A DNA stretch of 63,983 nucleotides, filler included, from Octopus bimaculoides (Eukaryota), in NCBI RefSeq assembly GCF_001194135.2. It is 5 parts of 5 records of this genome, joined end to end, with 100 filler letters (N's around TTAATTAATTAA, not from the genome) between each part and the next. Parts side by side here need not be neighbours in the genome. Positions count along the whole stretch, not along the records: positions 33,503 to 56,461 come from NC_068982.1; positions 56,562 to 62,539 come from NC_068985.1; 3 more parts are not named here. One strand, 5' to 3'. This document shows, one piece after another, positions 35,832-57,185 of the stretch. Position 1 is the first letter of the stretch. Each line of letters begins with the position of its first letter. Made by a program: the position numbers and the translations under genes. The notes beneath the pieces are model-generated. The model was not told the DNA's origin and made no database searches. It saw only the letters and a list, made by a program, of their open reading frames with translations.

Positions 35832-36089
35832 TTTTTTGCCAAATAAACACACGCACTATATTTTTTTTTTTTAGTCATTCGTTTATTACTGTTCTTATTT
35901 TATTATTTAAACTCATATCCATTGTCCGGAAATCTTTCGTCACACATCTGTGACCTCTTCAGCGATACAGATGTGTGACTGAAGATTTCCGGACAATGGA
36001 TATGAGTTTAAATAATAAAATAAGAACAGTAATAAACGAGTGAAAAAATATATATATAATGCGTGTGTTTATTTGGGAAAAAAAAAAAA
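35832..36089. repeat. Head-to-head inverted repeat of family B (about 120-bp arms, 15-nt spacer)
   Basis: Left arm 35832-35951, spacer gacctcttcagcgat, right arm 35967-36089; the arms differ at several sites. Confidence 0.9.
35922..35964 (-). ncRNA. Hammerhead-like motif, family B, intact core
   Basis: CTGAAGA (35962-35956)-G-GTCAC/GTGAC-GAAA-GATTTC; helix III AGATTT is self-complementary with two G-U pairs; stem I about 3 bp. Confidence 0.6.
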
Positions 36090-36232
36090 NNNNNNNNNNN
36101 NNNNNNNNNNNNNNNNNNNNNNNNNNNNNNNNNNNNNNNNNNNNNNNNNNNNNNNNNNNNNNNNNNNNNNNNNNNNNNNNNNNNNNNNNNNNNNNNNNNN
36201 NNNNNNNNNNNNNNNNNNNNNNNNNNNNNNNN

Positions 36233-36293
<61 letters not shown>

Positions 36294-38399
36294 TATATGT
36301 GTGTGTACATGCATGTATGTATGTATGCATGCATGTGTGTATGTATACAACATTTTTCTACAAAGAATTAATGTCTCTGGCTACAGTTAGCCACGCTGTG
36401 GTTCTGAACCTGATGCCACGAGATTTGGAAATGAACTTCTTAACCACACAACCATGCCTGTGCCTATAATGTGTGTGTGAGTGTGTCTGTATGTATGCAT
36501 ATGTGTGTGCTTGTGTATGTGTGTATGTATGTGTGTGTGTGTGTGTGTGCGTGTGTGCGTGCGTGCGTGTGTTTGTGTGTGTGTGTGTGTGTGCGTGTGT
36601 GTGTATGCATTTATTTTATTGTCTTTTTCTCTTCATCCCCCCTTTGAAAACTTTATTCGGATAGGCTCCGTATCATTTATCTGCCACAGTAATATGTTGC
36701 GTAGTCAAGGAAAGGCCAACCCTAACCGCCCTAAAGTAGGCGGGAATGCAACACCCGGATATGATAGGTAATAAAGTAACATTTCGGTTCTAACCGATTT
36801 GCAATGAACGGATAACTAACATCGATAACATTTGTTGATCTGTAGTGCACTCTCTTTGAATGTTTTGTCTCTCAAAACTTTACCCATACACATTATTCAA
36901 TTGCACCCGTTGATCGTCTTATCTCCCTCTCTATAACCCTGCACCTTATAAGTACAGCCTTTTCCCACGCTAGTGAACTCCCTTTGAAAATTGTTATGTA
37001 TACATTCCATAAAACAACAGCAACAACATCGTTAAGTTTAAAAAAGTGCTTTAAGGAGCTTAATGAAATCATTGGTTTGCACCAAAATAATATAACCTGA
37101 CAGCATCAGTCCACTTTCTCGCATCGAAAGTACACAGTTCATGCTCGTTGAAATGACTGATAAGCAAATAAAATTTGTAGTACTGGCTGAACGTGCCGCA
37201 TTAATCCATAATCACACGCAGTATCTTGTGATTTTACAGTCATAAATTGAATTATTGGGTATTTTAATAATGATTTTTCTTGCGCATTAGCAAACTATAT
37301 TTTCGGTACTTTTATACTTCTCTTTAGTACTATATCTCTTAAATAATGGAAACAAGATTCTCGAGCTTTTATTTAAAAGTCTGACGTTCGTATCCCATCA
37401 TTGGTTTTTTTTCATTGAATTCTTGTAGCCTAATCTATCTAGTTGGAAATTAGGTACAATATAAAACTAATGCTTACTGCTTTAGGTTACTAAAGCATTT
37501 CTAATTGCTTATTTGGACAGGAGTTTGCAGTTTGATGAAAACTAGAGATGCGATTGGGCCTACATAGAGGACAGTCACTTAAAAATTATCAAAAACCAAT
37601 TACGACTCGGTGAAATATTATCTGGTAAAATTGGCAGCAAAAAATAATAAAGAAAATATTTAGAACTAAGTTTCTCCTTTTACAAATGGCTTAATCGTGT
37701 CTACAGCGCTGAAATGATTTCTTTTCTGAAAATTTGTAAGAAGTGGGTTCCAGGTGAATCGAGTTTGCAGAAGAAGTTTCACTCGATATCCTTTGCCTTA
37801 CAATACGCTTCTAATCATTTCTTATTTTACAAAAAGTAGACAAACTTCCTCAGAATAAAACATACTTAATAAAGTTTTTTTCATATTTTATCAGTAATGG
37901 ATGGATGTTGTTTTTATTGAGACTGGACAGGTTATTTTTCCCACCGGCCCGAGATTTGAAACAGAAAAAGTATGTGCTGTGGAATAGTCACTATAAACTT
38001 TTAGTATTGATTATCATTTTATCGTCAGTTGACAGGACATGAAAGCAAAATGTTTTCAGTCGATAGCTTAACACTCCACCCGGTTTAATACCACCACTTG
38101 ACCTTTGGGTGACTTAACATTTCACTCCCTTGAAAGCAATTTGATAACTGTCACCTAGAGGGATGCAATAAATTCTACCTTCAGAGCAGAAATGCGTATT
38201 TAAGAATCTCGATAAATAAAATGCCTATAGACAGGGTTGACTGGCAGCATTGTTACAGCGTCGAAGCGTACACTTTCCTATATTTATTCCCGATTTATGT
38301 CTTCTAAGTCCAAAATCCCATTCAGGTAACCGTTATCTCACAATTATAGTGAAGTAACCGTTTCAGAGTGGATTACTAAAAACCAAAAAGGCACCAAAT

Positions 38400-38760
38400 T
38401 CAGTGGCTTAGGAGCTGTAGTCATCTGTTTTACAAAATGAACAGAACTCAAGAGAAAAATTATATTGGTGTAAATGAAAGCGGTTTTACAAAAAGATATG
38501 CCAAGCACCAGTTTTCTTTCCGATGTGTATACGAGTATAAAACTACTAAATTAGCTAGCCATAGCTGGAACCTGAAAGCCAACAATACCCCACACACCAT
38601 GAAATGGAGCATCGTACAACGATCCATCGCATACACTCATGTGTCAAAGAGCTAAAGGTTTGCATAGATGAAAGAAATCATCGTTTTTAGGCCTAAGAAT
38701 TTCACCGATATCCGTTGCCTTACAATTGTTGAACGAAGATTTTCACTAAATGCAAGCATC
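38400..38760 (+). mobile_element. Penelope-like GIY-YIG endonuclease remnant
   Basis: KNYIGVNESGFTKRYAKHQFSFR...TTKLASHSWNLKANNTPHTMKWSIVQRS matches PLE YIG..F..RY..H..SF..T.LS...W.LK. Confidence 0.85.
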
Positions 38761-39194
38761 TGGATAAGTTTTTATTATCGAACTGGAGAATACCCCACTC
38801 TTCGAATTAAGCACGCAATCTCACAAATGTTAACCTTTCCTCTATCTAATTAATCAGACAAGCCATTCTTGATTCCCTTTCAAATGGACCCAAGAGACAC
38901 AACTCTTATCGCCTTAACCTCTATGCTCTCATTCCCGTTTCCTTTTTCTGCGTTACTGTTTTTATTTTCTCGTTCTTTTTCGCTTTTGTTTTATTTTGAG
39001 TTTAATGATTACTTGATATTACTCGGCAGGCTATACAGGCTGGCCCAACTAATGTTCCTGTCGAAAGCATGACACTAATTGTAGCTCGCATTTGAATGTT
39101 ATGTACATTAAATATTTATCTTTCGTTCTAGTTGGAGTGCTTTTTTACTGATTGGAATAATAATTATTTCACATTTTTCAAATGTTTGCCACAA

Positions 39195-39305
39195 AAGGAT
39201 GAAAGGCAAAGTCGATCTCGGTGGAATTAGAACTCAGAACGTAGCGTCAGGCGAAATGTCACCAAACATTTCGTCCAGCGCGCTAACGATTCTGCCAGCT
39301 GGCCA
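39195..39305 (-). mobile_element. Abundant SINE 5' fragment
   Basis: gatgaaaggcaaagtcgatctcgg...gctaacgattctgccagct. Confidence 0.8.
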
Positions 39306-39312
39306 CCTTGAT

Positions 39313-39572
39313 GATAATAATAATAAATTCAACTTTACGATGAAAGTAAACAAACAAAATTTGTTCTTTTTTAGAAGCGTTGAGATGTATTGTAAGAACA
39401 GAAATAAATTTATTTCTCAAACGCGTGATAATGCTATAAATAGCGAGATCAGGATAAATTATCCATTTATTGCAGAAAAATACGCTACTGGCCAGCCATG
39501 AGACTCGAACTCACATCTCTGTGATTACGCGTCAAGTGTTTTACCATTAAACTAAACTGCCCAGCAACGAAT
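39313..39572 (-). mobile_element. tRNA-Thr(CGT)-derived SINE, copy 2
   Basis: Head at 39489-39562 differs from copy 1 at 1 of 74 nt; same body and (AAT)n tail. Confidence 0.8.
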
Positions 39573-39613
39573 GCATAGAAGATGGACATTAATCGATGAT
39601 GATGATGACGATG

Positions 39614-39645
<32 letters not shown>

Positions 39646-39753
39646 ATTACACGATTACATGTACAAAAAGACGCATAGTGACTTGAAGGTTCTATGTTCT
39701 GCCTACATATATGTGTTCGTGCATATGTGTGTGTGTGTGTGTGTGTATGTGTG

Positions 39754-39784
<31 letters not shown>

Positions 39785-41999
39785 TTACATCGTAATAATA
39801 GAACCCATAACCTGTTCCAATAGTGATTATTTACATTCACTCGAATTATCCACTTATGAGATCTGTCAAGAAGGTCTCTTTAACAATGTTTTATAGTTTT
39901 ATAGTGACATTTCATACTTGTTTATTAGTTTATATTCATCTCTTTCAAGCATGCATATATATATATTTGTTTGGTCATCTTCGCCTGGACATAGGTACGT
40001 GTATACGAGTGATACACATGCATTTGTATATAGACATAGGCATACACACAGGCGCGCACACACACACGCAGATAGATATGTGTGTGTGTGAACTTCAGAT
40101 ATCCAAGGCATAAGACCAGAAGGAGAAATTGTGACATATGATCTACACATATAAATAATGAACATCTGATTGGAGAACGTCTATCAATTAAACGTCCATC
40201 TATTAAAATGCTATTAGCAGTTCTTGGGACTGTGGTACTTGCATCATGTGCAAATAAATTCTGTTTAAAACACTTTAAATTCGAGAAGAAAGTGTTCGCC
40301 AAGATCACTTGTTTCACGTACAAACCATATTCTGCAAAAGCAATCACGCCAAGTCAGTGTTGCAAATACACGATCAATATTGATGAAATTCCTCGAGTTT
40401 TACAGAAGTGCGTCTGTGTTGTATTGATTATAGTCAAATATATTGCAGGGTTGATTACAACATATGCTATACATTAAAAGCATTGCGCTCCAGTTCATAT
40501 TTTACATCACTATGAACTTCAACCAACTAAATATATGGAAACACCGAGTTCTTTGAGACTTATCAACGTTTTAGGCAAAGCTGCATTTTATCAACTTTCT
40601 TTTAAAATTGTATGCTGAAATCATACTTAGAATATCAAATTATTTGAAATTGCAATGAATACTGTCGAATGAAATCTCCAATTGTCTAATATTTAAATGT
40701 TATATCTGAAACCAAAAATGATGATATAGGGTGCAACGAAAATACTGGTCTTTTCAAGAAAGTAAAAATGTTGACAACTTATCAAATAAACAATTTTTTC
40801 TATTGAATGATAACAAGTGGGACTGATTCTTTCAATTATGCCCACTTCTTACAGTTGCAGAGTGCTTTACAAGCGAGATAAATAAAAAAAAGAACCACCA
40901 ATGCGGCGGCTAAAGTAAGCTAACAAAATTGCTTATGGAAGACTGAGATAATTAAAATCAGATATGAGAGAGGTTTTCATAGCGCCATGCATAGAGGATG
41001 GCGTTTAAACATAACACTTTTATTTCCAACTAAAATACATTGTTTATACTTTCCAAATAACTACAGCCTTTTCCAGATGCGATCTAATTAAGAGATAATT
41101 TCATTGTCGCAGAATCAGAAAATATTAAAAAACTAGACTTAAAACTTGAAGATCCAAATAGTTCTGCATATGCGTTATAGATGTATTGATAGAAGAGTTT
41201 AAAGTGTCTAAATAAAATATTTTCCCTGGTTCTTTGAGAACTAAAGTTTCAACGTTATTACTTGTATGTATAATAAGTTAATGGTTGACACCAATTCTTA
41301 ATGACACATTAAAACTTCAGAATCTGTGCCCTATTTTAGTTAATACTATCGTATAATCTTCAAATATGATATATCAGTTACTGCAGTTAAACAAACTAAC
41401 TTTCTCAACGGTACATAGTTTTGTGATATCTAAAAATAAAGTTTTAAGTGACAATGGTATTATTGGTATTTGTCCCTCCGTTTGGTTATAGGAATGTAAT
41501 TTTGGTGTGCATTTTAAGTTGTCAGAATGTTAGCCTGCGAGTGACAGCGATCTTTCGCTATGTTTAAGATCTGACAATTAGGTTTGTTTTACACGGGTAG
41601 TGTGCAGTTTCTTGAAATAATAAACGACAGCTATGAGAACTACCATTTGGAATATTTTAGTAGATAGTATGCGTCTCTGTAGCTATTTCTATTTTTAGTA
41701 TAAATCCAGTTATGATTTACTTTAAACTTGCGTCTAGGGGCTTCAGTCCTGCCAGTAATGTTTATGTATATGAATGCATTTTTCCATAACGTTGCAATGG
41801 TGACAGGATTAAGCTACGACTGCAATCTGTATCAGCATGAGAATTACAAGTGAGTGAGTGTCTTTCAGTTTAGCGTCACTAGCATAATACCAATTATTTA
41901 CCTTTCAACGCAGTTTTCTCATTAGTGTCTTTATTACCTACATAGGCAAAATGAGATTATTTACCCAGAAATTGTGTACATGCCAACTCGGGTTAATGT

Positions 42000-43830
42000 G
42001 GTCTTATCAGCGGATAATTCTTTGAAGCTCATTAGCTGCACATATAATTAGTGGCAACAGTATCATAGATCTGTTTTTCTCTTGATGGCACGCATAGCCT
42101 GTGTAGTTTCTCCCGGAGGAAGAGCTGAAAATGACGAAGAGTGTATTAGTGAAGGTTTTATTAAGGATACTTCATAAGATGATGGGTGAATAGTTTTCAT
42201 AGTCTCCAGATAACGCAGAGAGTTGATGTTTTCCCATTTCCATGCAGCTGAAGAAGTGGTAATGTGTAACTCTTACCTTGAAATCATTGGCTGCCATATC
42301 CCTTTCATATTTCGTGATACCATTGGACAGTGTTAGGAAAACTCTATAATTCACAGTCTTTGAGATGTGTAATTTACCATGTAAGCAAATGGCGAATTGA
42401 ATTTTCAGGAATTACAGGCTGGGTTTCTGATGGACATTTTTACCACTGCATTTTTGTTCGACTTGCAATGTTCTCTAAGCACGAATAGCTAACTTTAATG
42501 TTATAAGCTTGTAAAGACAACATGATAATTATAGATACGTGAGAAGTGCTGTCAAATTAGATGCAGAAATCTCCCAGATAAAGTATTAAGTTTTATGCTT
42601 CCATATCGAAATCTCTTCAGAAAGCTTCGAGAAAATTAGAACATCGATATCAGAATAATCTAGGAAGTCACTCATGTTTTATATGTATGCAACATAGTAA
42701 AAACGAAAGTGAACCCGCTGATTGGGCGTCGAGGATGCTACGTCCTCTAACTTCGTCAGGTTATTCATCCTGTGTATTCAAAAGAATGTGCACATCCCCA
42801 CGGCTCGATCGAGTATAGGGACGACGGCCAAGCAGTTTCAAACGATATGAACGATCACGCTATGTTAATTTTTAAGAAGTATCTTATAAATATCTTTAAA
42901 ACAATTCGGCCTGCATATAACTGTTGCTATCAATTTAACAACGATCAACTTACTGAGTAGACAACCAAAGGTAGAGTAACGATGAAAATGTTTATATCCA
43001 TAGGTATTCCAATGATCACCCAGCTGTAATTAGAAACCTAGTCAGAAGCAGCTGCAACAGAATCTTCAGACTATCGGCGGACAAAGAGAGATCTTCAACG
43101 GGGCCGCATTCCATTATAACACGGCACATAGTGGCTAAATCGATAAGTTAGTAAATTTAGAGGATCCACACGCCCCTGTAAACCCGAGGGGAGTTTGAAG
43201 AAGAAAGGCAGTTTAGTCGGATTTTTCATTCAATCGGGATATATAGGTACACTAGCATAGCTAGAAGCGTCCTCTCCCTAATTAGAAAGATTTTCCATAA
43301 GTATCGTACCATTGATAATGCCTATATCGTGAAGGTTATCAACTCATGCTTAACTAATATCGCTTCTAAGATCGTATACCACAAGAGGACAACAATGCAC
43401 AGACAGATTCCATCCCATACCCCAACTACCGCAATTCCCATTTGTCAATTAGATAGATTTTGCCACTTAAAAGCTGTTATCTATAGCGCTACTTCACACC
43501 ATCTAAGGGCATCACAAGTATCTAACATTAAATTATTCAAAGAATATTTTACACAGCGTATGCACTCCTCCGGGTATGAGAATTGGGAAAACTTTACCTC
43601 CAAGTCTAGCTTTATCCACACACTCCGAGACCAGGGAAACTACTTCCGTAACATCATATGCCCTCACTACTTATCTGCAGTTCGCAATTTTCACATTTGC
43701 CTCCGTGTAAAATTACATATATTACAACAGCATGCAAACCCATTAACAGAGAAACTGATGTGTAATATTGCTATCACCAAAGATTTACCCTGTTGTTCAA
43801 CTACAAACTATTACCCGTTGATACTCTGAA
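42000..43830 (+). mobile_element. Near full-length fossil Penelope-like element (RT + GIY-YIG)
   Basis: Collinear motifs: FYASIS, SRKSLMF, YRDDG (42814-42828), KKYLINIFK, YIHRYSNDHPAVIRNL, IFNGAAFHYN, TSIARSVLSLIRKIF, VKVINSCLTNIAS, CQLDRFCHLKAVIYSA, FTSKSSFIHTLRDQG, HICLRVKLHIL. Many stops and frameshifts before 43329; 5' limit uncertain. Confidence 0.85.
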
Positions 43831-44582
43831 AAGACTACCTTAACCTTGGTTGACCTATGACAATTGCTGGATAAACAATTCCAGGTTCCCCATGGTGATA
43901 TTATTTCCCTTCCACATGTTATGGTTGTGGCCTATCAGTGCCTAGTTAGAAATACATCACACTCACATCAATACATGACGTCCCTGTAAGTATGCAAACT
44001 GACACATCCAGAAAGGTTACTTCGATTCGACCTGACATCCTTGAATACTTGTTGTCACTGTTTTATAAGTCTATTCCCGTGACCTGAAATGACCAATGGA
44101 GATCACAATATGCACAATATGTTCTCATTTAAAAACCATCATTAATTTTCCATATATTGATCATGTAGTCGCTTACTATGGAACTCATAGTAACGTGGGG
44201 CTAGTTCAGCCTGATAATTAACATTATTAATCACCACTATTATGAGTTAAATACCTTTTCTTTTATTTGTCTACCTATCTGTATATGTATGTGGGTTTGT
44301 TTAGAATTGACAACGAGAATAACACTACGGAAGACTGAATGAAGCACAAAGTGTGATTATTACTTTGACTGTTGGTGACAAAGAAAGGAAATAGATGTAA
44401 CACTTACATTTTGAGAATATGCTCGAAGTTTAGAGAGCTACAATAACGAAAAGGAAGAAAAGTCTAATGGCGTTGTGTATCAGATCATGTATGCGTGTGT
44501 ATTTGTATACCCACACATGCGCCCTCACACATATACACAGAAACACATGCATGTATGTGTCAGTCGTTAGAGAAGTGTTCTC

Positions 44583-44650
44583 ACGTGGATAAGAGTTGTT
44601 TTGACTCTTATTTCTAGCAATGTTGGTGTTGACTAGCGTCCTCAGTCACT
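44583..44650 (-). ncRNA. Degenerate hammerhead-like motif, family D
   Basis: CTGAGGA...TAG(T)CAA/TTGCTA-GAA then an 8-bp helix III ATAAGAGT/ACTCTTAT, then C; stem I needs a 1-nt bulge and there are 3 extra nt before stem II. Confidence 0.4.
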
Positions 44651-44741
44651 TTAGTCACTATACTTGCGCCTTTCGGTTGTAAACTGCGAATAACCATCTT
44701 AATAATGTGTGTGTGCGTGCGTGCGTGCATGTTTGTGTGTG

Positions 44742-44790
<49 letters not shown>

Positions 44791-45254
44791 TGTGTCTATG
44801 TCTGTGTCTGTGTCTGTGTGAACACGTTATGTTTCTGCAGTTTTTCACTCACAAGGTAATTCTTTTTACCAGATGGTTCTTATCTAACCTAGATCACAAA
44901 CTGTTGATTAAAAGTAAACCAGGATGTTAATATGACTTAGGCTGTCGTTATTTATTTAGCTTGCATCAACTTGGTTTCACCTTCTAAGCTTTAACATATT
45001 CATTTAGTGCAAAACAGTTTTGAATCTTTCGATTTTGACTACATCTCTTATGATGCCAGATGTGTTTCAGTCATAAGACTGGAAGACTATTACAACTCCC
45101 TAGACTTTATTTCTAATCTAGATTTTGTTTTTAAAAAATATTTGAATCTGTGATGGGACAGAGGAAAAGGACTTCCTAGATCACGTTAAATTCTTTATGT
45201 TATGCCAAACTTTCAAAGGTACCAGCAGTAGATACGAATTGGTAAGATTAGAAA

Positions 45255-45590
45255 TTCTTTCTTCTGCCGAGGTTGACTTTGCCTTTCATCCTTCGGGGTT
45301 TGATAAAGTAAATATCAGTTGAGTACTGGGGTCGACGCAATCGACTTACTCCACCTCTGAAATTGCTGGCCTTGTGCAAAAATTTGAAATCAATATTAGA
45401 AATCGGTTGACAGAATCGTTAGCACGCCGGGCAAAATGCTTAACGGCATTTCGTCTATCTCTACGTTCTAAGTTCAAACTCCACGCTAGTCGACTTTGCC
45501 TTTCATACTTTCGGAGCACTGTGATCGATGTAATTCACTTAACACCACTCCCAAAATTTCTGGCCTTGTGAAAAATTTGAAACCAATGGA
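45255..45590 (+). mobile_element. Two tandem copies of the abundant SINE
   Basis: ttgcctttcatc...ctggccttgtg(c/a)aaaatttgaaa at 45265-45395 and 45405-45585. Confidence 0.85.
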
Positions 45591-46337
45591 TAAATCATTT
45601 TGGAAGTCAATAAATATCGTTCTAAAGTTAACGATCGAAATTAAATGTTTTAAACCTTTTTCAAAATTTTCTAGAAGTGGTTTGTGAGGCAACAGTTTAT
45701 AAGAATTAAGGTCATAAATATCTATTTACGTTTTCTTCTCAGGTTCTTGTCAAAGTCAAAAGGCCTCCAAGCATCATACTTTGATATTAGTATTTTTTTT
45801 TAAGGGAAATCCCCCAAAATATATGTAGCCGATTTCGTCAGAGCTCGGTAGGATTTCTATCCAAACTTTTCCAGGCATTTATATTTACTTTTATATTGCA
45901 TCTCATCATTCATTCAAACAAACAGCCTCTGGATTTCATTTCTTAAATATTATCAGTTTTTCTACTTTCAAAGAGAATATTTACTCTAATACCCCAACTA
46001 AATAATCGGTCAGTTCTTACTTTAAATAGATTTTCATAGCGTTGGTTTATTAACTTAAACAGGACATTAACAATTTTCCTGTCTTGTACATCACGTATGA
46101 TAGACAGGACATATTTACTTGGCGTCTATACGTCATATGTGATACACATTCCTAGTTTATCAACAACCAGATTAATTTGAGACTTACGAAGGGAAAGCTG
46201 TATGTTACTTACAACGTATAAAACAAGAGTTAACTAAAAGTATGAAAACAAGCATGGACGTTTAGGACAAACTTATGAAAATGCTTTGGACAATCATGAA
46301 GATTAGACTTCTGCAATGGTTTGTGTTACACTCTTTG

Positions 46338-46386
<49 letters not shown>

Positions 46387-46399
46387 CTGACCACTACAC

Positions 46400-46543
46400 A
46401 CATTTTTTCTCTCCTTGTTTCTCTCCTTGTTTCTTTCAGTGTTCCTTTCTGTTGAAGAGCATAGGCTCGAAACATTAAAGACTTTCTCTATTCCCGAGCG
46501 TTATACTAATACATTTGTTTGTTGTCTACACCACCTGTCTTCG
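46400..46543 (+). mobile_element. HHR-bearing repeat family A, copy 2
   Basis: Aligns with the reverse complement of 7441-7600. Confidence 0.8.
46445..46480 (+). ncRNA. Hammerhead-like motif, family A (U6 variant, helix III CpG-decayed)
   Basis: CTTT-CTGTTGA-A-GAGC(ATAG)GCTC-GAAA-CATT-AAAG. Confidence 0.5.
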
Positions 46544-46553
46544 NNNNNNNNNN

Positions 46554-46587
<34 letters not shown>

Positions 46588-48479
46588 TGTATATATAAAT
46601 ATGTATGTCTATATATATATATATAGATGATATATTTAAAACCACTTATATATTTATTCATCTATCTATACATATGTATTTTTATTTATTTCTCTATTTC
46701 TAATTAATAATCAATAGCTAAATATAGTCAGAAATATCAACCAAATACCTATCTACAAGGCATCAAAATTATTCTCATTTGAATTTCGTATGAGATACTT
46801 TGTTATTAATGAATAACATTGACATGGATGGCGCTCTAACAAAAACTTAACTTCTAATTCTTGCCTTAGTTTTTCAATAAATGATTCTCATAACATTTGA
46901 CGTGACTGGCAATACTAAAAATTTGTTAACATAAGGATTCCATCCCTTTCCGATCTAAACTCACACCCATTCAAGAAGTTCAAGTTAGTACTGCAAGCCA
47001 AAAAAAAAAAGATATTCCGTAACTTTTCAGTACTGTCACCTCTTTAAATAGAGGTATATCCGTCAGTTAGTAAACACATATGGATAAGTTGGCGAGCTAC
47101 AGAAAGTACCGTGCACTGGTGATAGTTTAACCCCACACTTAGTGACTTTCAGTTAGTTCATTTGTAACACACAGTAATTTTTTTTATATTTATAAATGAA
47201 TGAAAAATAAATTAGGTGAATGAATTATTGCAAAAACAAAAAAACAATCAAAATTGAATATGCATAACTATTCGCACAGTAATGATTTCCAATTAATTTC
47301 TGTTTTTGAGTAATCACTATGAATTAGATTCACTCTTTCACTATTTTATATCATTTTTTGTATTTAATGCTCTTGTGGAAATTTTTGAACAGCACACAAT
47401 CGTATTTCCTTTCGTTTATAAAACCAACTGTTTCCTACATTATTTATGAGTTCAGATTTGTTTGTTTAGTTTAAAAACAAAATGCTTCATTTTCGCTATT
47501 TTGGTTCACTTAGTTGTACTTATATAATTTGGTATCTAGCACTTTTACTGTTCTAATCAATATGAGCACTTTAAAAAGCATTCCGTTATCTTGCAGTACT
47601 GAGTTCGCATCTCAGAATGAAGAGAGCTTCGCATCCCAGCATGAGTAGAAGGAATTCCTTGGGAGAAAGAAATAAAGCATTCAGTTTTACCATTTTAAAT
47701 GTCTTTAAAATTTAAATTTTTTAATCTAAAGTATAATATCCTTTTCATTCTTTTTATCTTATGAAAGGAAATTTTTATAATAAAACTCTGTTTCCTTTCA
47801 AGTAATTTAAAGCCGTTTTTTTATATAACATTTGCTTAGAAATACTTGTAGATACCTCATACACTTCAATTACATATAAAGATTTATGAGTGTGTAAATG
47901 TGCGAGTGTAAATTTTGGAGTGTCTGTATGTTCGTAGGTATGAGAAGACTCTAAGCCGCCCACAAACAAATTACTAAGATATTTCTTTAGTCATGATTTT
48001 TAGAGTCACTTATAATGTAGCGCCATGCAACCAGCAATAAAACAAGCATCAAGCAACCACTTAGTTTGTTGAGAATTACAAAAACAAAGTAGAATAGAAC
48101 TAATGAGAAACTAAAATATATAAGACGATAAATGCAAAAGGAATTAAGATTATGCCTATGATTGAAAGAAGAATGAAAACAGCTCCATAAAAATGTTCGA
48201 AGAAAGTAAACTATTTGAGTAGAAACTCTTCTTACTAGGGGGGGGGGCTGTAACAGGCACAGAATGTGGTTAATAAACCTTAAGAGAATGAAAACGAGAT
48301 AATCGTTCGGAGAAACAACTCTCAGGGTATAGGACTATGTCAATGCGTTGATGTATTCATAAACGTAGGTATATGTGAGGATATATTTGCACTTATATAA
48401 TGAGAACATGTATGGTTATTTTTCTCAGTATGTTTGCGTCTACGCCATATATGCACGCTTCATTCAGTGAATGTCCTCA

Positions 48480-49800
48480 TTCTAGGTAGCTCACTGGAGA
48501 ATCTTTTCAATGTTTTCACAAATCTTTGCTGTAACAAATTTTTACTGTTATCAATCTGATGCTTAGGATGTGAGTCATTTTCTTTCGTTCTTTCTTCGAA
48601 AGTCCTAGAACTTTCAGGATGTTGTACAAATCTGTACTTGCATAGCAAAGCACAACTGTGATAATAGGTATAAATGAAAATCTAGAACCGGGTAGAAGAG
48701 CTCTATTTTATAAATAAGCTGACTTCTATGACACCGAATACTCTTTTCGTTGAAACGTTCGAAGAGTCTTCTGTATTTCTAACGCTATGGATACATTGTT
48801 TCTGATGAACTTATATGATCCTCAAAACAATCCTTTATCTGGATAGTATCAAAGTTTTGGCTCATGGAATGTGATATCTTGCTGATATTTTGGGGGAGCT
48901 ACCGATAATATGGGCCATATCTTCCGTATAGGCGTAACACAATCGATATTTTCTATCACAACAAACACGCATCGGAGCTTTTTCATGTCTTATTGCTGCG
49001 ATTTTCTGTTCCTGAATAACGAATACGCATTCCCAGGTGGGAGGTGATTAATCTAGCACAGATGCTAGGGAGATTCTTCTTCCTTCCAAAATTCGTGATA
49101 GCCTCTAACTTGCATAACTTCCTGCAGATATGATAAATGTATCGCCTCCCACTTTTGTTCTAAGATGATTCTGCTGCCCTTGGTTCTGATGGGCCAGTCA
49201 TATCTGTTCCATGTGTATCCGTTGACGTGTTATTCACCTAGTTTCCAGATGTTATCATATTCACTGATGACTGCACATATCTCTCTTGGCTATTCAGCAG
49301 ATGTTCACTAATCGACGCAATTTAGCCCTCAAAAGCCATCTGGATCATTGTTATGTCTCTACTTACATCCCCCGTTTAACATAGACCCTTTTAGTGATAG
49401 AGTTCACGTGAAAGTTACCAGTGATGGTTGAATGTTCCTAGACTTGATATTCAAGTTGCATATCTCTTCAATTTGTCCAGTCTATTATCCCAAATTGGTA
49501 CTGATAGTGGCACTGCAAAAGCATTCTATGGTATAATTTTATTGAATGCTAACAGCTTTGTCTTCCATACATTTCGAAGTCTCCCGAAGTTCTCGTCTGT
49601 CACTTTATCTTTGCACACAACGTCAACGTATGCAATATTTATATAAATTCCCTAATGCCACTTGCATCCGTCAACCATATTCCTTCGCTAGTCAAGAATC
49701 TTTTCTTGACTGACTACTATAAAGAAAAATGAACATTTATACTGATCAAATTCCATTTTTAAGACCCGTGAGAAAGTTGCGACCTACTCTGACTCAAGTA
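48480..49800 (-). mobile_element. R4/Dong-type LINE remnant (RT thumb to REL end)
   Basis: EICNLNIKSRNI, KRVYVKRG, VIQEQKIA, KYRLCYAYTEDMAHIIGSSPKISARYHIP (CCHC-derived), VIEVS, FVKTLKRF. Confidence 0.75.
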
Positions 49801-50219
49801 GTCTTGAATACTACCTGAAATCAGCATTAGTTCAAAGGTACGTATAACAATAATTTTTCTCCCTTCTGCATATCCTTGCGTATAACCTCAACAAGGCTGT
49901 ATGTATGTATGTATGTATGCATGCATGCTTATATGCACATATGCATGAATATATGCATATATGGATGCATGTCTGTATGTATGCATGTATGTATGCATGC
50001 ATGTATGTATGTATGTATGTATGTATGTATGTGTGTATGTATGTATGTTTGTATGTGTGTATTTATGTACATGTGGTATGTGGAATCAGTAACAGAAAAT
50101 GAGAACCGGGGAAGTGAGAAAAAGGAGTGTGACTGGCATCTGTGGAGAAGGAGTGAGTAGTAAAAGAGTGAAATAAAGAGAGAGTATGAGAGTGTATATG
50201 TGTTTGTATGCTGTGTGTG

Positions 50220-50269
<50 letters not shown>

Positions 50270-50942
50270 TTACGACGCGTTGAGTTGAAGACGTATCGTA
50301 TCACAGACCCAAATGGAAAGAGCAGACGACATATCGGGTAACCAAGAGCAGATGGGAAGAAATCAGAACTTTATTTTTTTCTCTATGTTTTTGTTGTTTT
50401 TTTTAATGTTAAGATATTAATATCTTTTTGATGCTTCTGACAAGCTTAACAAAGTTTACATTTTAATTAGAATTTAAGAAAAATTATTTTTAAACGACAG
50501 TCGTTAGGTGCGAGTAAGTTTGCGCATAAATTTAGTATGTGGATGTGTGCGAGGAAGGAAGGGGTATGTGGTATTAATAAGTGGATTTCTTACATTAAAA
50601 CATGAACACACAATCATAAAGAACGGATATATGTATTCGAATTGAATCGAGAAGTAAACATTGTTTAACATCTTAGCTCAGCTCGACGAATAATAATTAA
50701 TAGACAACTACATTGATTCTGTTTAGCTTTGAAACTAAATATATACAAACAAAACGAAATATTCGAAGCACCCGCCGCTGATTGAATTGTCCCATTAGGT
50801 GAGTCAATCTTCAGTTATCTTTTATGTTGTCACTCCTATCAGTGTTAATTCAATAAATTTTATTATATTTCATTGTAATGTTGAGATTTGTCAGTACTGG
50901 TAAGGTACATGTATGGATCAAAACAATTTGATTCAAATTCGT

Positions 50943-50983
50943 TGGTACTCTTGAGTTTCAAGCGCGAAGCTAATCGTCAGCCA
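50943..50983 (-). ncRNA. Minimal type I hammerhead-like motif, family E, intact core
   Basis: TGG-CTGACGA-TT-AGC(TTCGC)GCT-T-GAA-ACTC(AA)GAGT-A-CCA; GUA triplet. Confidence 0.65.
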
Positions 50984-50999
50984 TTTTGTAATTACAAAA

Positions 51000-51040
51000 C
51001 GGCTGACGACTAGCTTCGAGCTTGAAACTCAAGACTGCCA
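51000..51040 (+). ncRNA. Degenerate mirror copy of family E hammerhead
   Basis: CTGACGA at 51003-51009 and GAAA are intact, but helix III reads ACTC-AA-GACT followed by G17, so it is probably inactive. Confidence 0.45.
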
Positions 51041-51147
51041 ACGAATTTGAATTAAATTGTTTTGATCCATATGTGTGTGTATATGTATATNNNNNNNNNN
51101 NNNNNNNNNNNNNNNNNNNNNNNNNNNNNNNNNNNNNNNNNNNNNNN

Positions 51148-51188
<41 letters not shown>

Positions 51189-51859
51189 ATTTCTTAGCCC
51201 TCTCATTCTTTAACTCCCACTTTCCCGCCTCGTTTATCTCCCCTGTACCTTTCCTTTTGTGTCTTTGATATTTTTCTAATCCTTCAATCCCGCTACCATT
51301 TAATCCCTCTTTCCACATTCCACGTGACCCGTGTCCGGCCAGCCATGGTCTTTCGTTCCAGGCCTCACTGCCGACCGCCAACACTCCTTATATCCATCTC
51401 CTGTGTTCCTGCCTTTAGGCATTCACTTCATACACGCCAGCTAAATTTGATTCGTTCTCAGTCGAAAGACACCTATTGTTATATGCTTGTTGATTGTTTT
51501 TGTAATTGTGTACCTTGTTCTCAGTCTTTTGTCTTTGCTGCCGTACACATTCACTAGCCTTCTTACAAAATATCTAATGCTCTTAGATTAGACTTTTTGT
51601 GGTGTAACCAGATCGAACTGCCTCAAGTGTATCTGCCCGAAACAGTGAGGACATTTGGTAACTTGACTGAAGAAAGCAGACCACTGATGATCTGTCCTTT
51701 TTTCCCTGTCCTTCTAATTGTTGTTTTTCCTGTCCGCCTTTGTATCGTCTATCTGTCCGAATGTTTTATTGTCCTCTATTGCGTTTTTGTTCCATTTTTT
51801 AGTGACTTCGAAGTCTCGCTTTGTTCGCCGTCGTCAGATTGTCAGTACGTGAGCGTTCG

Positions 51860-51908
<49 letters not shown>

Positions 51909-52435
51909 CATTTATATTCATACATGTATACATATACATGTTTTTATAATTAATACATATATAAAACATCACTTGGTTTGTAAAATATATTTTATCTAAA
52001 TAATGAAATACACATGCGCAGGCATGTGTCACATACTGTACAATTAGTACACATCTATATATATTTATGTATAAGGGTGCGCGTGAAAGTTAACGAATAA
52101 CGAATAGACTGTATTGAATGCAAGGGAAATGCAATGCAAGGGAAATAGCAATTAAAGAAATCCCTGAAGAAGTTGCCTTCCCTTATCTGCGTATCTACAA
52201 ATTTTCAAGTTTCGTATAATCTTGTGTACTCTCGTGTAGTCCCATCCAAAATGGATGCGACAGCCAACGTTTTTAAATAGATGCTTCAAGAAGTTATTTC
52301 ACATGAAATAACTTCCATTGATAGCAGTATTAATATTTATCCACCAAATGCAGTACTGAGCAATCATTCTTACTGTTCTATACTACTGTATAGCTTGTTA
52401 TGTGTGTATGTGTGTGTGTGTATGCGTGTGTGTGT

Positions 52436-52436
<1 letters not shown>

Positions 52437-52507
<71 letters not shown>

Positions 52508-52508
52508 G

Positions 52509-52577
<69 letters not shown>
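52437..52577. repeat. (GATA)n microsatellite
   Basis: Directly visible. Confidence 0.95.
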
Positions 52578-52578
<1 letters not shown>

Positions 52579-53279
52579 TGGTTGGGGTGTGTGTGCATAT
52601 TTATATGGATAGTTGGTTTTGTGTCTGTATACTACCTTACTTGTTTGTTTATGCAGGATTGCATTCTCTAATATGTCCTTTCCTAATTCAAGATAAGTCG
52701 TTATATATTGAAGATAATTTGGCTGATATTTTTATCAGATCAAGCAACCACGTTGTGACTTTCCTTAATTGGTTGGAAGTAAATTTAGTTGTTTTATATC
52801 AAGTCGTATCTGAACAAAACAATGGTGAAAGGTTTTATCATTTTATATCACGAAATACATTTTTTAGTATAGCCTTTATTAAGACGATAGGGTGTGGCTT
52901 AAGAGATTTAGCTGCTATTTTCATTGGGTTACCACATTGATTATGTGTTAGATTTCTGTTCAGCAAAGTTGCCTAAAAACGGTTCTCTTTTGCTTACTCA
53001 TCCGCCGTCTTACGCTCTGAATCTCATATCCAGATTAAGTAGATGGCTAAACTAACAGGCGAGTCAGTTAAGATGGTGTGAGTTTTAATTTTTTTTTTTT
53101 TTTTTTTTAGTGAGTGTCATAGAAAACACAGTTTATTCTATCAATTCTATCAAGTACGCCTATATCAACTCGTTAACATCATCAGAATGCGATTCATTTT
53201 TTAATAATACCAACAAAAGATAGATTACACAACTCGACAGTTATTTTGATGCTGGGACGTTTTTATCTGCTTTGGAGAT

Positions 53280-54110
53280 TTTTTCATGTGCTGAATCCAA
53301 ATCTGGAATCCATATTTCTCATCACGTCTTGATTCCAAGACACCCAAACATTACTAGATGATATGCGTGGACTTTAAGATCGTCATTTTTTTCCTGGGGG
53401 CAACAATAAAAGGATATACCAAATAGTCATCCTTTTTATTAATGTAAGAGAGCTGAGACATGGAAAAACACTGGGTAATCAGTAATCAAAGAATGGCCTT
53501 AGCAAACACTAGTTCCAGGGCATTTTAATGTGGTTGAAGAGCCTTTGTTCAACCGGCAGAAAATCATCCTACCTCCACTCAAAAGTGGCATTTCGAAGCA
53601 GTTTCTTAAAGCTCTTTATAAAGATGAACCATGCTTTCACAATATCTGCAGCATATTTTACGGTCTGAGCAGTGAAAAGATAAAAGCTGGAATATTTTAT
53701 GGGCCTCAAACCAGAAAATTGATGAAAGATGGGAACTTAGTATATTCAATGAATTGTATTGAAGCAGCAGGATAGAATTCATTTGTAATGGTTGTAAAAT
53801 GACTTCCTAGAAAACAAGAATGAGGCCAACTGTGCCAGAATAATCGAAAACATGCCGAAGAACTTACAAAAGTGGAAGCAAATATGATCACTAGGCTGCA
53901 CAGTCACCTTGAGAAATTCTCTGAAAATCTTGGTATCACAAGTGAGGATCAGGCAAAACCTTTCCATCAAGACATGAAATCAATGGAACGAAGATATCAA
54001 GGCTCATGAGACTTGCATATGTTGGCGGACTAATGCTGGAACTTGACTCGTGATCTTTCTGAGGTTCAGTACTTAAGAAAATCATTCAATTGCAAATTCA
54101 TGGAAAATTA
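53280..54110 (+). mobile_element. DNA transposon remnant, tentatively Chapaev3 (CMC) type
   Basis: ICVDFK...GYTK, QKIILPPL, KQFLKAL, KAGIFYGPQ, HLEKFSENLG.TSEDQ...FHQDMKSMERRYQG, MLAD*CW; family assignment from memory of these motifs. Confidence 0.7.
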
Positions 54111-54230
54111 GGCATAATCAGTGATATGGTTTGTCTGTAGAAATTTTAAAATTTTTATTAGCTTTTTGTAGAAAACATTCTATTTTGAAAATAAATAAAT
54201 GAATGAATGGTGAATAGGAAGGGGTATCCC

Positions 54231-54268
<38 letters not shown>

Positions 54269-54754
54269 ACCTATCTATGTAATCTGTCTGACTATCTATC
54301 TATCTGTGTCTCTGTCTATCTATCTATCCATCTATCTATCTATCAGCCTGTCTACCTACCTATATTTCTATCTATCCATCTCTATTGTCAATGGAACCTG
54401 ACCCCCACAAAAAAAAACAAAAAGAATCTTCTCTTCTTATAAACAAAACCCCCCAAAAAACATCTGTTTTATATAAATGAACAAGCTGTTTGTACATTCA
54501 CAATATTTTATTTGACAATTTCGAGAAACAAACGAAAGCGCTAATAATAATAAAGAAATANNNNNNNNNNNNNNNNNNNNNNNNNNNNNNNNNNNNNNNN
54601 NNNNNNNNNNNNNNNNNNNNNNNNNNNNNNNNNNNNNNNNNNNNNNNNNNNNNNNNNNNNNNNNNNNNNNNNNNNNNNNNNNNNNNNNNNNNNNNNNNNN
54701 NNNNNNNNNNNNNNNNNNNNNNNNNNNNNNNATATATATATATATATATATATA

Positions 54755-55320
54755 CTGTTGCGTCTGGGAAGAGTCATTCTTTTTTAGTGCCTTATTTATT
54801 TAACACACTCACCGGTAAAATTTCCATTCGTTTATTTATTTATTTTTCTAAAATGTCCATGCATCTTACAAGTTTTTCAATAATTGTTGACTCTGTCCGT
54901 TATTCAAGTTGCGTTCTTTTTGTTTGTTTGTGCGTATGTTTGTGGATCAGTGTGTGTGTGTGCATACACATGTGTGTATGTATTATGTATGTATGTATGT
55001 TTGTATATATGTGTGTATATGTGTGTATATGTGTGTATATGTTATGTAGATGTGTGTGTATATGTATATGTGTGCATATGTTATGTAGATATACGTACGT
55101 GTGCTTGTCTGTTCATATTACCTATGTACCTATCCGTCTATATGTCTATCTGTTTACTTTCATATCCATTTGCCTACATACATGTGCATATACACATACA
55201 CATATACACATGCACACACACATACATGCATGTATCTACATAACAGGCCACCAACTATTCTACCTGTATATAAATATAAACTGTGCGTATGGGGGTATGA
55301 TTATCTACTACATATATTTC
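54755..55320 (-). mobile_element. Microsatellite-containing repeat, same family as the PLE 5' region at 58900-59870
   Basis: gagtcattct...caccggtaaaatttcc...ggatcagtgtgt...tatgtacctatccgtct...ataaatataaactgtg shared. Confidence 0.75.
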
Positions 55321-55374
55321 CTATTTAGTACTGGGGATGTTTCATTTGTATATATATATATATGTACATATATA

Positions 55375-56295
55375 TATCAGGTCATTAAGAATGAAATGTC
55401 CGATTTTGAACTGAAAGCTTATATTACTTTATCTCAATAAAAAGCAATGCAGTTAATCAAAGTATGCACCTAAATTATCAACACAATTTTCCCATTTTAT
55501 CGGCACCTTGTTTATGCCGTCAGCCAAGAATTCTGGAGGGCAAGAGGTGATGATATCACGAAAGGCTGTTTTTGCATCTGTTTTAGATTTGAAGTTTTTT
55601 CCTTGCAAAAAGTTGTCGAATGCCTGGAAAATGTTATAGTCAGTGGTGCAAGGTCTAGTGAATATGGCGGATGGCAGAGTACTTCCAGGTTCAGTTCCTG
55701 TAACTTGAGTAGCTTTCTTTGTGCAACATGTGGTCGAGCATTGTTTTGCTAGAGAATTGGCTTGCCTTTATTGACCAATCTCGGTTGCTTAATTGCAAGT
55801 TCACTCACCATTTCATCCAGCTGGTTGATATATACATCCGCTGTAATTGACTTACCAGGTCTCATGAGGCTGTAGTGAATGACACCAGCGCTGGACCACA
55901 AAACAGACACCATTAGTTTTTTGGGGTTAATATTCTTTTTTAGATTGTGTTTTGGCACTTCGTCTCTATCCAAGCATCGTACAGAAAGCTTGGTATGGAA
56001 AAGAATCCATTTTCATCACACGTAACAATACGATGCAAAAATGGTTCGCTTTTATGCTGTGACAGCAAAGAACAGCAAGTTTCAAGATGACGTGTCATTT
56101 GATGCTCGCTGAGTTCATGTGGTTCCCACTTGCCCAGCTTCTTTACTTTGCCAGTTTATTTCAGATGATCCGATACAGTTGGAATCGAAACATCAAACCT
56201 TGCTGCTAAATCACACTAGTTTGAGATGTATCCGCTTCCATTACAGCTTCCAGCTCATCATTATCCACCTTTGGTCACAGGTCTAACATTTGCTC
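55375..56295 (-). mobile_element. Mariner (Hsmar1/cecropia-like DD34D) remnant, catalytic half
   Basis: MVSVLWSSAGVIHYSL...KQPRLVNKGKPILL, then frameshifted DNARPHV and HPPYSLDLAP; TA at the 3' end. Confidence 0.85.
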
Positions 56296-56296
56296 A

Positions 56297-56331
<35 letters not shown>

Positions 56332-56374
56332 GTGTATGTATGTTTGTAGGTATGTATATATGTATGTATGTATG

Positions 56375-56408
<34 letters not shown>

Positions 56409-56430
56409 TATATGTATGTATGTATGTTTG

Positions 56431-56461
<31 letters not shown>

Positions 56462-56505
56462 NNNNNNNNNNNNNNNNNNNNNNNNNNNNNNNNNNNNNNN
56501 NNNNN

Positions 56506-56517
56506 TTAATTAATTAA
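56506..56517. other. Assembly spacer TTAATTAATTAA
   Basis: N44 on both sides. Confidence 0.9.
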
Positions 56518-56655
56518 NNNNNNNNNNNNNNNNNNNNNNNNNNNNNNNNNNNNNNNNNNNNATATATATGTAAACTTTATTAATGAGTGTAGAAATTGAT
56601 ATTAATCAATTAAAACCAGCGGTCTAGCATATTAAAAAAATCCGAAGATTAAAAT

Positions 56656-57185
56656 TATATTACATACAAAAATAAGAGGAAAGACCAGCAAAAGTGGACT
56701 CCTATATGGTAGAAATAGATGCCGAATCATCTAACCGCGAAAAAATATATATGTTCTCAGTAAAAATTCAGCGACACAACAGAATGTAAGAGGGCAAGAC
56801 AAATGAGAAATACTAAATAAAAAAACGATTGAAGACATTTGAAATGATACCCTGAATGTAATTTGTAGAACTCTACACGTGCTCCCTTTCGGGAAGACGT
56901 CTTGTGCCTAGTTCTGGAAATTGCATTGAGAATCGACGGACTACGCTGACGATCCTGCAGATATTACTTATGTCAATTTTAACAGGTGAATCCATGGTAC
57001 GTAGGTTAATCGTTTTTTTTATTTAGTATTTTTCATTTGTCTTGCCCTCTTACAATCTGTTGTGTCGCTGAAATTTTACTGAGAACATATATTTTTTTCG
57101 TGGTTAGATGATTCAGCATCTATTTCTAGCATATAAGAGTTCACTTTTGCTGGTCATTTCTCTTATTTTTGTATGTAATATATAT
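56656..57185. repeat. Head-to-head inverted repeat (about 175-bp arms) around a 177-bp spacer with an HHR
   Basis: Left arm 56656-56830 is the reverse complement of right arm 57008-57185, with scattered substitutions. Confidence 0.9.
56941..57004 (+). ncRNA. Type I hammerhead-like motif, family C
   Basis: CTACG-CTGACGA-T-CCTG...CAGG-T-GAA-[T]CCATGGT-A-CGTAG: 5-bp stem I, palindromic helix III, GUA triplet; A15.1 appears mutated to T at 56991. Confidence 0.7.

Follow-up and report, generated by a model that had tools for sequence, protein, structure and literature searches.

Minimal type I hammerhead ribozymes (HHRs) have been described in the pseudo-LTRs of metazoan Penelope-like retrotransposons (Penelope-like elements, PLEs), where CUGANGA and GAAA boxes are combined with a short helix I, a long helix II, a bulged base, a palindromic helix III and a G10.1-C11.1 pair termed highly conserved, and where pairs of motifs, as in Schistosoma, lie on opposite strands 100-700 bp apart (PMC4209133). 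PLE insertions are reported to carry an inverted, 5'-truncated copy at their 5' end, a one-sided tail of 30-40 bp and a bias toward microsatellites (PMC8557442), and their pseudo-LTRs can stand head to head with palindromes at the junction (PMC3846280, PMC8557442). Animal non-LTR retrozymes, which are non-coding and abundant and have type I HHRs and a probable PLE link, form direct tandem units of ~300 nt with canonical HHRs and circular RNAs (PMC7229834; bioRxiv 10.64898/2026.07.22.740005), and have been argued to come from pseudo-LTRs (bioRxiv 10.64898/2026.07.22.740005).

Here we analysed 63,983 nt of Octopus bimaculoides DNA, filler included (the window), in which a sequence-only reading had noticed three foldbacks with HHR-like motifs and had taken them for small non-autonomous ribozyme elements mobilised by PLE machinery. 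In our interpretation, to which we assign a probability of about 0.8, the foldbacks are dead stubs left from the 3' ends (pseudo-LTRs) of three PLE families (A, B and C) after 5' truncation, the two copies of each pair were likely joined head to head in one insertion, and the HHR is near the centre because its predicted cut lies only 34-270 nt from the end of the element. As in insertions of endonuclease-bearing (EN+) PLEs (Penelope/Poseidon, Neptune and Nematis), an inverted copy stands head to head with the forward one, the junction has a palindrome or a short overlap, 5' truncation is strong, microsatellites flank the copies and the 3' ends are of two classes; the differences are that only stubs of 80-360 nt are left here and that the extension in C is 87 nt, not 30-40 (PMC3846280, PMC8557442). 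The layout is thus not new but that of a typical published PLE insertion, and since it has already been described for PLEs, the finding is an ordinary one.

Structure of the foldbacks

Self-BLAST and a motif descriptor placed the three head-to-head repeats and their HHR-like motifs where they had been claimed, at 35826-36089 (A; E 3e-90), 50912-51071 (B; E 4e-62) and 56656-56830/57008-57182 (C; E 1e-68), with cores at 35962 (minus) in A, 50980 (minus) and 51003 (plus) in B and 56946 (plus) in C. Arm identity is 92.5-94.3% across the foldbacks, with mismatches in 7 of 108, 6 of 80 and 10 of 174 aligned columns for A, B and C, respectively. The inversion points likewise agree with the sequence-only reading, falling 8 nt after the predicted cut in C, inside stem II in A and ~10 nt before the core in B. 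The inverted pairs with arms of at least 60 nt and a spacing below 300 nt (n=6) include three that are more than 85% alike, all of which contain an HHR-like motif, and three older ones (69-77% alike), none of which does. Three of the four descriptor-positive loci fall inside these six pairs, which make up 3.4% of bases (P about 1.5e-4). The descriptor, which was tuned on the motifs of the three foldbacks themselves, finds 3-4 motifs in the window and 0.04-0.09 in shuffles, and an earlier descriptor with no bulged base and a looped helix III found none in the window. Among the five visible outer ends, four have a (TA)n or (TG)n flank, a weak match to the microsatellite target because the window is full of microsatellites. 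Target-site duplications, which vary and are often missing in EN+ PLE insertions, would fall here within gaps and microsatellites.

The forward copy of foldback A (35826..35967, minus strand) begins ~5 nt above the core, holds an entire HHR-like motif and ends in poly(A). Between the poly(A) and the (TA)n flank, a stretch of about 30 nt (35793..35825, minus strand) is, from its sequence, a putative PLE tail; it is missing from the family A copy at 18384. The inverted copy (35968..36089, plus strand) begins inside stem II and therefore has no core; it meets the N gap at 36090, so that the right end of A is lost in an assembly gap. Self-BLAST and the descriptor also identify a solo family A copy (18379..18512, plus strand; core 18384), 80% alike to the forward copy, with a whole HHR-like motif and no inverted partner seen.

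Foldback B consists of a left copy (50906..50988, minus strand; core 50980, predicted cut after 50946) and a right copy (50995..51071, plus strand; core 51003), separated by a six-base palindrome (50989..50994) that lies outside the family homology, which family contigs leave at 50988. The cleavage triplet of the right copy is altered at this locus; family contigs have G at 51035 and A at 51037. A 38-nt family B 3' stub without the core (13490..13527, plus strand; 97% alike by self-BLAST) precedes a microsatellite elsewhere in the window.

The arms of foldback C are present as first placed, except that the left arm is about 87 nt longer than had been stated and reaches to about 56570, as family contigs covering 56562-56655 indicate. 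At its 5' end, this inverted copy (56570..56830, minus strand) begins 8 nt below the predicted cut, and (TA)n follows its 3' end; the extension relative to the forward copy is one-sided. The forward copy (56827..57182, plus strand) is 5'-truncated 172 nt above the cut and ends at (TA)n, and loose ends occur before 56827. The two copies overlap by GATT (56827-56830), that is, by 4 nt of junction complementarity.

It is highly improbable that the inversions are artefacts of a short-read draft. All three foldbacks lie less than 100 nt from an N gap, and PLE structures of this kind are reported to trouble short-read assemblies (PMC8557442), but the arms differ by 5.7-7.5%, unlike a read or graph foldback. 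In addition, contigs of two studies cross from the unique flank into the left arm of B without a difference (for 24 letters of the arm, below the 31-letter bar), and, by subtraction, the locus letters account for about 30.7 of the 94.3 depth units that run X1 has at the B centre, near the 31.6 of a single copy. Similar foldbacks also occur in contigs of a second organism. No contig listed shows the junction at the A or the C locus, and that of B is seen by depth subtraction only.

Predicted hammerhead motifs

The three motifs are predicted from sequence to be of hammerhead type and self-cutting. The CUGANGA, GAAA and UH boxes are present in the window in A and in the minus-strand motif of B, and at the family level only in C and in the plus-strand motif of B. 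All three families have palindromic positions 15-16 and loop 3 (helix III), for which the modelled self-duplex is -7.7 kcal/mol in B (minus), -9.2 in C and only -0.4 in A. Motif A (35926..35965, minus strand; CUGAAGA, GAAA, predicted cut after 35929) has one bulged nucleotide, a 6-bp helix II closed by G-C, a 3-bp helix I and the self-complementary AGAUUU. Motif C (56941..57004, plus strand; CUGACGA, predicted cut after 56999) has a 5-bp helix I, a 4-bp helix II with a long loop and a palindromic helix III; it reads GAAU at the locus and GAAA in the family, with 56991 T>A in 49 and 57 contigs and in 36/36 and 30/30 RNA reads. The left motif of B has a near-palindromic helix III.

Compared with the minimal type I HHRs of PLEs (PMC4209133), all three motifs share the boxes, the short helix I and the palindromic helix III, and the opposite-strand arrangement recalls the Schistosoma pairs. 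The bulged base, the long helix II and the G10.1-C11.1 pair that follows the bulge are found in A only (at 35962 and 18384). B and C have a helix II of 3-4 bp and, at 10.1/11.1, a U opposite U that the family B loose-end consensus has too, and because U-U replaces G10.1-C11.1 these predicted motifs are treated as variants rather than consensus members. Rfam covariance models reported no hammerhead at A, B or C in three local scans, nor among the 150/300 matches listed for the whole window, in which microsatellite matches dominate. In Rfam, A appears as a sub-threshold microRNA hairpin.

The predicted hairpins would be very stable (-118 to -309 kcal/mol). The proposal that such a hairpin masks the ribozyme agrees with the models for A, where the core lies in the apical loop, and for B; it does not extend to C, where the motif is predicted within a 177-nt loop, unpaired with the arms.

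Families B and C beyond the foldbacks

A comparison with public runs covered families B and C. Family B continues upstream of its centre in 45, 34 and 52 contigs in three runs and family C in at least 10 contigs, so the idea of small non-autonomous elements of fixed extent is not supported. Summed contig depth in run X1, which does not give copy numbers, declines from about 129,000 at the 3' end to 12,600 at the core in family B and from about 760,000 to 107,000 in family C. Both families are thus abundant, with copies concentrated at the 3' end and, in most listed contigs, sequence that goes on past the centre; we therefore consider them 5'-truncated pieces of longer repeats. Fixed palindromic units were rejected on the same evidence, and a MITE, i.e., a DNA transposon unit of fixed length with TIRs, does not match families B and C, in which sequence runs past the centres and 3' ends vary. 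Family B 3' ends are of two classes: in one, (TA)n comes next (19 and 30 X1 contigs), and the other (79 contigs) is at least 30 nt longer and occurs on neither arm of foldback B.

We think it quite unlikely that these are dedicated non-autonomous retrozyme-like elements moved by PLE enzymes, perhaps palindromic units making regulatory double-stranded RNA. Stubs without an ORF, very high abundance, the stability predicted for the hairpins and the argued derivation of animal retrozymes from pseudo-LTRs (bioRxiv 10.64898/2026.07.22.740005) are all compatible with this model. However, each of A, B and C pairs two truncated copies in inverted orientation and has minimal motifs, self-BLAST of the window shows no direct tandem units at any of them, two of the four whole motifs within foldbacks are broken, and arm mismatches have no bias toward G-U-keeping changes. 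Contigs crossing the family B centre (at least one in X1 and at least six in X16, three of the seven with at least 31 letters on both sides) amount to only about 0.6% (X1) and 1.4% (X16) of the summed depth at the B core, and their centre letters differ.

The position of these centres raises a second alternative, in which the HHR fold, or a short palindrome above it, sets the stop of the PLE reverse transcriptase and the joining of cDNAs, such that family B has remade a 160-nt two-ribozyme palindrome at independent loci in two species. The seven centre-crossing records listed and one X9 joint all lie 8-12 nt above the core, and the centres fall within about 3 nt of one spot, a tighter concentration than stops at random would be expected to give, though one that the query itself favours; five further family B joints near the cut were left out of the count owing to unknown letters between or a possible helix III variant. 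The forward copy of A begins 5 nt above the core and the inverted copy of C 8 nt after the cut, which would fit the same rule, as would the about eightfold fall in family B depth from 10 nt below to 16 nt above the cut. However, alignments break at a helix III length variant in just this place (26 and 30 loose ends at 50950-50951). Moreover, the other family C junctions among the 15 joint rows (of 122) and 12 letter rows (of 50) listed, all single contigs, lie between -198 and +119 relative to the predicted cut, and the core is missing at four of seven. HHR mutants are also reported to insert normally in vitro, and a lizard PLE to have no RNA-seq ends at the cut (PMC11167929). We accordingly judge a ribozyme-set junction unlikely, and a ribozyme-centred architecture is not supported as a rule. 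If a ribozyme-set junction were true, the thousands of copies in such families would map in nature how PLEs integrate, a step yet unsolved, and the U-U motifs of B and C would, from their sequence, be a candidate hammerhead subtype.

RNA evidence and the link to PLEs

RNA reads show no pile of ends at the predicted cuts of families B and C, a further point against a junction set by the ribozyme. None of 63 reads crosses the B centre, and family C reads that are 99% alike to the locus number 1 of 1254 and 0 of 918. Hence the suggestion that a read-through hairpin is an ADAR/Dicer substrate is unsupported, on data too thin to reject it. A>G counts were excluded as editing evidence because the reads come from many copies. 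No go-back joints, as expected of circular RNA, were seen among the rows listed for three ordinary RNA-seq runs, of which about 6% each was covered.

The window also contains PLE-like RT/endonuclease ORF remnants of other families at 38440-38789 and 42969-43754. Pfam gave no match at cut-off in 32 + 3 window frames, and the 38431-38646 frame had no relative by word-based homolog search or in the Atlas; relatives emerged from a full HMMER search only, and one of ten of them matched Pfam GIY-YIG weakly (E 0.0085). Motif scans of metagenome contigs and prokaryote genomes gave no match, so that no family is tied to an RT-GIY-YIG ORF.

A possible route of insertion

Under the stub interpretation, the most likely route would begin with the element's GIY-YIG endonuclease nicking the two strands of a target that is AT-rich or made of (TA)n. 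Reverse transcription would be primed at either nick, close to where the pseudo-LTR RNA ends 3', and would stop early in both cases. A few complementary bases (GATT/AATC in C; in other family B copies, AATT) would then let the two cDNA ends join, and repair would fix the pair in its head-to-head inverted form. In this scheme the ribozyme would only be carried along, because core-keeping copies must come from uncut RNA. Priming on both strands is compatible with the activity reported for a purified PLE protein, which cut both strands and extended them, started at two internal sites and had no need of HHR cleavage in vitro (PMC11167929). Literature searches, judged by title, returned nothing on twin priming of PLEs.

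Alternatively, within a PLE origin, the inversion may have arisen by self-priming, whereby one cDNA or antisense template folds at a short palindrome and copies itself. We consider this less likely. It has been proposed for head-to-head PLE repeats (PMC3846280), the centre of B is palindromic, AATT forms the centre in other family B copies, and the 5' end of the inverted copy lies within the span of the forward copy in A, B and C. By contrast, the about 87 nt of extra 3' sequence on the inverted copy of C cannot come from its own cDNA, unless the forward copy lost it at (TA)n. The part of the sequence-only reading that fits the evidence and the literature is a PLE origin with a foldback made at integration; the part concerning small fixed units is not supported. 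The copies have since decayed and are probably without function now.

Implications

These results add three PLE-type stub families to a known pattern, and such stubs could be misread as MITEs or as hairpins of microRNAs. Whether head-to-head PLE insertions arise by self-priming (PMC3846280) or by priming on both strands, which PMC11167929 allows, is unsettled, and the positions of junctions and tails across thousands of copies could decide the route by which PLEs insert.

Association of foldbacks with hammerhead-like motifs

The window is a microsatellite-rich draft sequence with 4,941 N across 25 gaps, and no host gene was recognised in it, Pfam being blank at cut-off on 32 of the 178 stop-to-stop window frames. 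Self-BLAST recovered all three head-to-head inverted repeats located by the sequence-only reading, namely foldbacks A (~35826-36089), B (~50906-51071) and C (~56570-57182), whose arms differ in 7/108, 6/80 and 10/174 aligned columns, respectively (13 of the 23 changes being transitions). A descriptor of the minimal type I hammerhead ribozyme (HHR) matched three sites (18384, 35962 and 50980), where 100 block-wise dinucleotide shuffles averaged 0.04 matches, and four sites (56946 gained), against a shuffle mean of 0.09, when one GAAA change was tolerated; it should be noted that these counts are partly circular, since the descriptor was designed after the motifs had been seen. A strict looped HHR descriptor found zero motifs over the window, and there was no Rfam hammerhead match at any of the three foldbacks. 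Inverted self-hits with arms of at least 60 nt lying less than 300 nt apart number six and cover 3.4% of bases; exactly A, B and C among them are >85% alike, and three of the four motif loci fall within the six (P ~1.5e-4). The association between foldbacks and motifs is real and beyond chance.

Anatomy and predicted folding

Foldback A consists of a minus-strand copy with the whole motif, beginning ~5 nt above the core (the conserved HHR boxes), and a plus-strand partner beginning inside stem II; a solo family A copy with the whole motif lies at 18379-18512. Both copies of foldback B begin 8 nt above the core, flanking a six-base palindrome, and no cleavage triplet survives in the plus copy. 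In foldback C, the forward copy begins 172 nt before the predicted cut, the inverted copy 8 nt after it, with GATT at 56827-56830 common to both. Motif A agrees with the minimal HHR consensus of PMC4209133 (bulged base, 6-bp helix II, G10.1-C11.1, palindromic helix III), whereas B and C differ from it in having U opposite U at 10.1/11.1; the alignments of that study may already include U-U variants or mollusc families. The earlier proposal that a read-through hairpin masks the ribozyme agrees with folding prediction for A and B, whose full hairpins leave helices I and II at zero probability, but not for C, whose motif is predicted to remain in the hairpin loop (helix II probability 0.37 alone versus 0.11 in the hairpin).

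Other repeats and motifs in the window

A solo degenerate HHR-like motif (51741-51860, minus strand; core 51837) with palindromic helix III was found by eye and missed by the descriptor; it lies outside any foldback, with a (TA)n/(GT)n run 22 nt away, and has kin at 50-105. Another HHR-like variant, also seen by eye (~46440-46480), follows a pyrimidine tract and AG and belongs to a short repeat family (46387-46620, 7374-7605, 12776-12827). Two tRNA-headed repeats (4028-4282 and 39315-39572), which lie 35 kb apart in inverted orientation and are 94% alike, are likely a young SINE. Nested SINE-like copies in both orientations at 3886-5478 form two old foldbacks (69%) with zero HHR matches. Another young repeat (94%) occurs at 24197-24542, 30214-30389 and 31325-31893, and 31325-31808 forms a partial direct tandem. 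We take 12861-13474, 55375-56295 and 57200-57964 to be mariner-like fragments (weak Pfam HTH match, E 0.068) and 53240-54160 to be a decayed coding piece, probably of a DNA transposon; foldback C lies in a (TA)n stretch flanked by two of the mariner-like fragments. Twelve-base islands lie amid 44-N gaps at 19894-19905, 33447-33458, 56506-56517 and 62584-62595; those beginning at 33447, 56506 and 62584 are an identical AT palindrome. The islands were rejected as biology, being assembly or submission filler.

Penelope-like sequences in the window

A decayed ORF end at 38380-38800 (plus strand) resembles a GIY-YIG endonuclease; 441 relatives of its 72-residue frame (38431-38646) score E <=0.001. 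One relative, P0111 (722 aa), presumably combines reverse-transcriptase motifs with a C-terminal YIG endonuclease region and has the look of a Penelope-like element (PLE); Pfam GIY-YIG was weak and appeared in 1 of 10 scanned relatives. PLE-like protein matches at 38440-38789, 42969-43754 (plus strand, decayed; tblastn E 1e-8) and, weakly, 7897-8133 (plus strand, decayed; E 6e-4) indicate that PLE-like ORFs have inserted in the window, none of them linked to family A, B or C. An older inverted pair (58859-59097/60199-60416; 77% alike, 1.1 kb apart), with a third copy at 54750-55069, encloses a decayed minus-strand frame (59883-60164) that we take to resemble a PLE thumb/linker; Pfam was blank on this frame, and the descriptor gave zero matches across 58859-60416. 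PLE families are reported from Octopus vulgaris (PMC13282606).

Family B in public sequencing runs

Family B was followed in DNA runs X1 and X9 (organism A, the source organism) and X16 (organism C, a second organism) and in RNA run X22. In X1 the 3' end has a depth of ~129,000, against 12,600 over the core. Since 45, 34 and 52 contigs of the three DNA runs, along with 10 RNA reads, continue past 50988 into upstream family sequence, the centre of foldback B is a truncation point. Two classes of 3' end occur: the first (19 and 30 contigs, X1) stops at 50909-50912 and adjoins (TA)n, and the second (79 contigs) lies at least 30 nt beyond it; a PLE tail would likewise give two kinds of 3' end.

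Depth across the centre is low, at 94 in X1 and 357 in X16 (~0.6% and 1.4% of both-arm core depth), with at least one crossing record in X1 and at least six in X16, varying in their centre letters; the 31-letter bar is reached by 3 of the 7 listed. A further joint in X9 has AATT at its centre. In both organisms, these records place the foldback centres of other loci 8-12 nt above the core, where the foldback query is itself biased toward finding matches; no joint centred 15-30 nt further up occurs among the 7 joints listed. The centre has 94.3 depth units in X1; other letters account for 36 and 27.6 of these, and the residual 30.7 is close to the single-copy depth of 31.6. These values suggest that foldback B's own junction is present in this independent sample. 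Starting in unique flank, contigs of X1 and X9 extend 24 letters into the left arm with zero differences, and an organism C contig reaches 18 letters into it with 22 differences, all below the bridging bar; an old B insertion common to both organisms is suggested. RNA reads on 50993-51031 numbered 0 of 63, with no end piles.

Family C in public sequencing runs

Family C was sought at 80% likeness in two DNA runs (two studies) and two RNA runs (one study) with 56562-57977 as query, mariner-like piece included; 7,281 and 7,192 contigs aligned. Position 56991 is A in 49 and 57 contigs (nearly all depth) and in 36/36 and 30/30 RNA reads; the family thus carries GAAA and a helix III that is a perfect palindrome, and the window copy is broken. 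Summed depth in X1, which is distorted by edges and does not equal copy number, declines from ~760,000 close to the 3' end to 107,000 across the motif and 18,000-67,000 upstream of it, the slope of a 5'-truncated retroelement. Because family sequence spans 56562-56655, the inverted copy of foldback C exceeds the forward copy by ~87 nt.

Ten contigs continue upstream of 56827 with family sequence. Among the matches listed (15 of 122 joint and 12 of 50 letter rows), there are seven other contigs in which part of the left arm is linked to a forward piece, the arrangement expected of a foldback, each join being a single contig and one maybe an internal hairpin; their forward starts lie at -198, -139, -96, +14, +93, +117 and +119 relative to the cut, and the core is absent from 4 of the 7. 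No contig with foldback C's own junction was found among the matches listed. RNA reads occur in both orientations, 1/1,254 and 0/918 of them being 99% alike to the locus; no end pile was found at the cut, the sole pile being at 56592 (~6% of each RNA run).

Origin of the foldbacks

The loci and their families display inverted pairing, truncation and decay, along with short complementarity at the junction, a bias towards the 3' end and two classes of 3' end. According to PMC3846280, PLE inverted repeats with junction palindromes are abundant and mostly head to head, and solo pseudo-LTRs (PLE terminal repeats) are known. PMC4209133 describes minimal HHRs as mostly single, probably from truncated PLEs, with opposite-strand pairs 100-700 bp apart and low in vitro cleavage; retrozymes are treated in PMC7229834, PMC6765202 and bioRxiv 10.64898/2026.07.22.740005. 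We infer a PLE origin for the foldbacks, with a probability of roughly 80%.

Self-priming has been put forward for such repeats (PMC3846280). Priming on both strands followed by end-joining of the cDNAs appears the likelier route, mainly because of the longer 3' end of C's inverted copy, a comparison that covers foldback C and PMC11167929 only. In the latter, a PLE protein from a lizard cleaves both strands and extends them, two internal start sites define the tail, and HHR cleavage is unneeded. Since copies that keep the core require an uncut template, cleavage cannot explain A, B or the forward copy of C. The known PLE insertion pattern already accounts for the foldbacks in outline; the parts that merit genome-wide attention are the centre that recurs in family B and the U-U variants.
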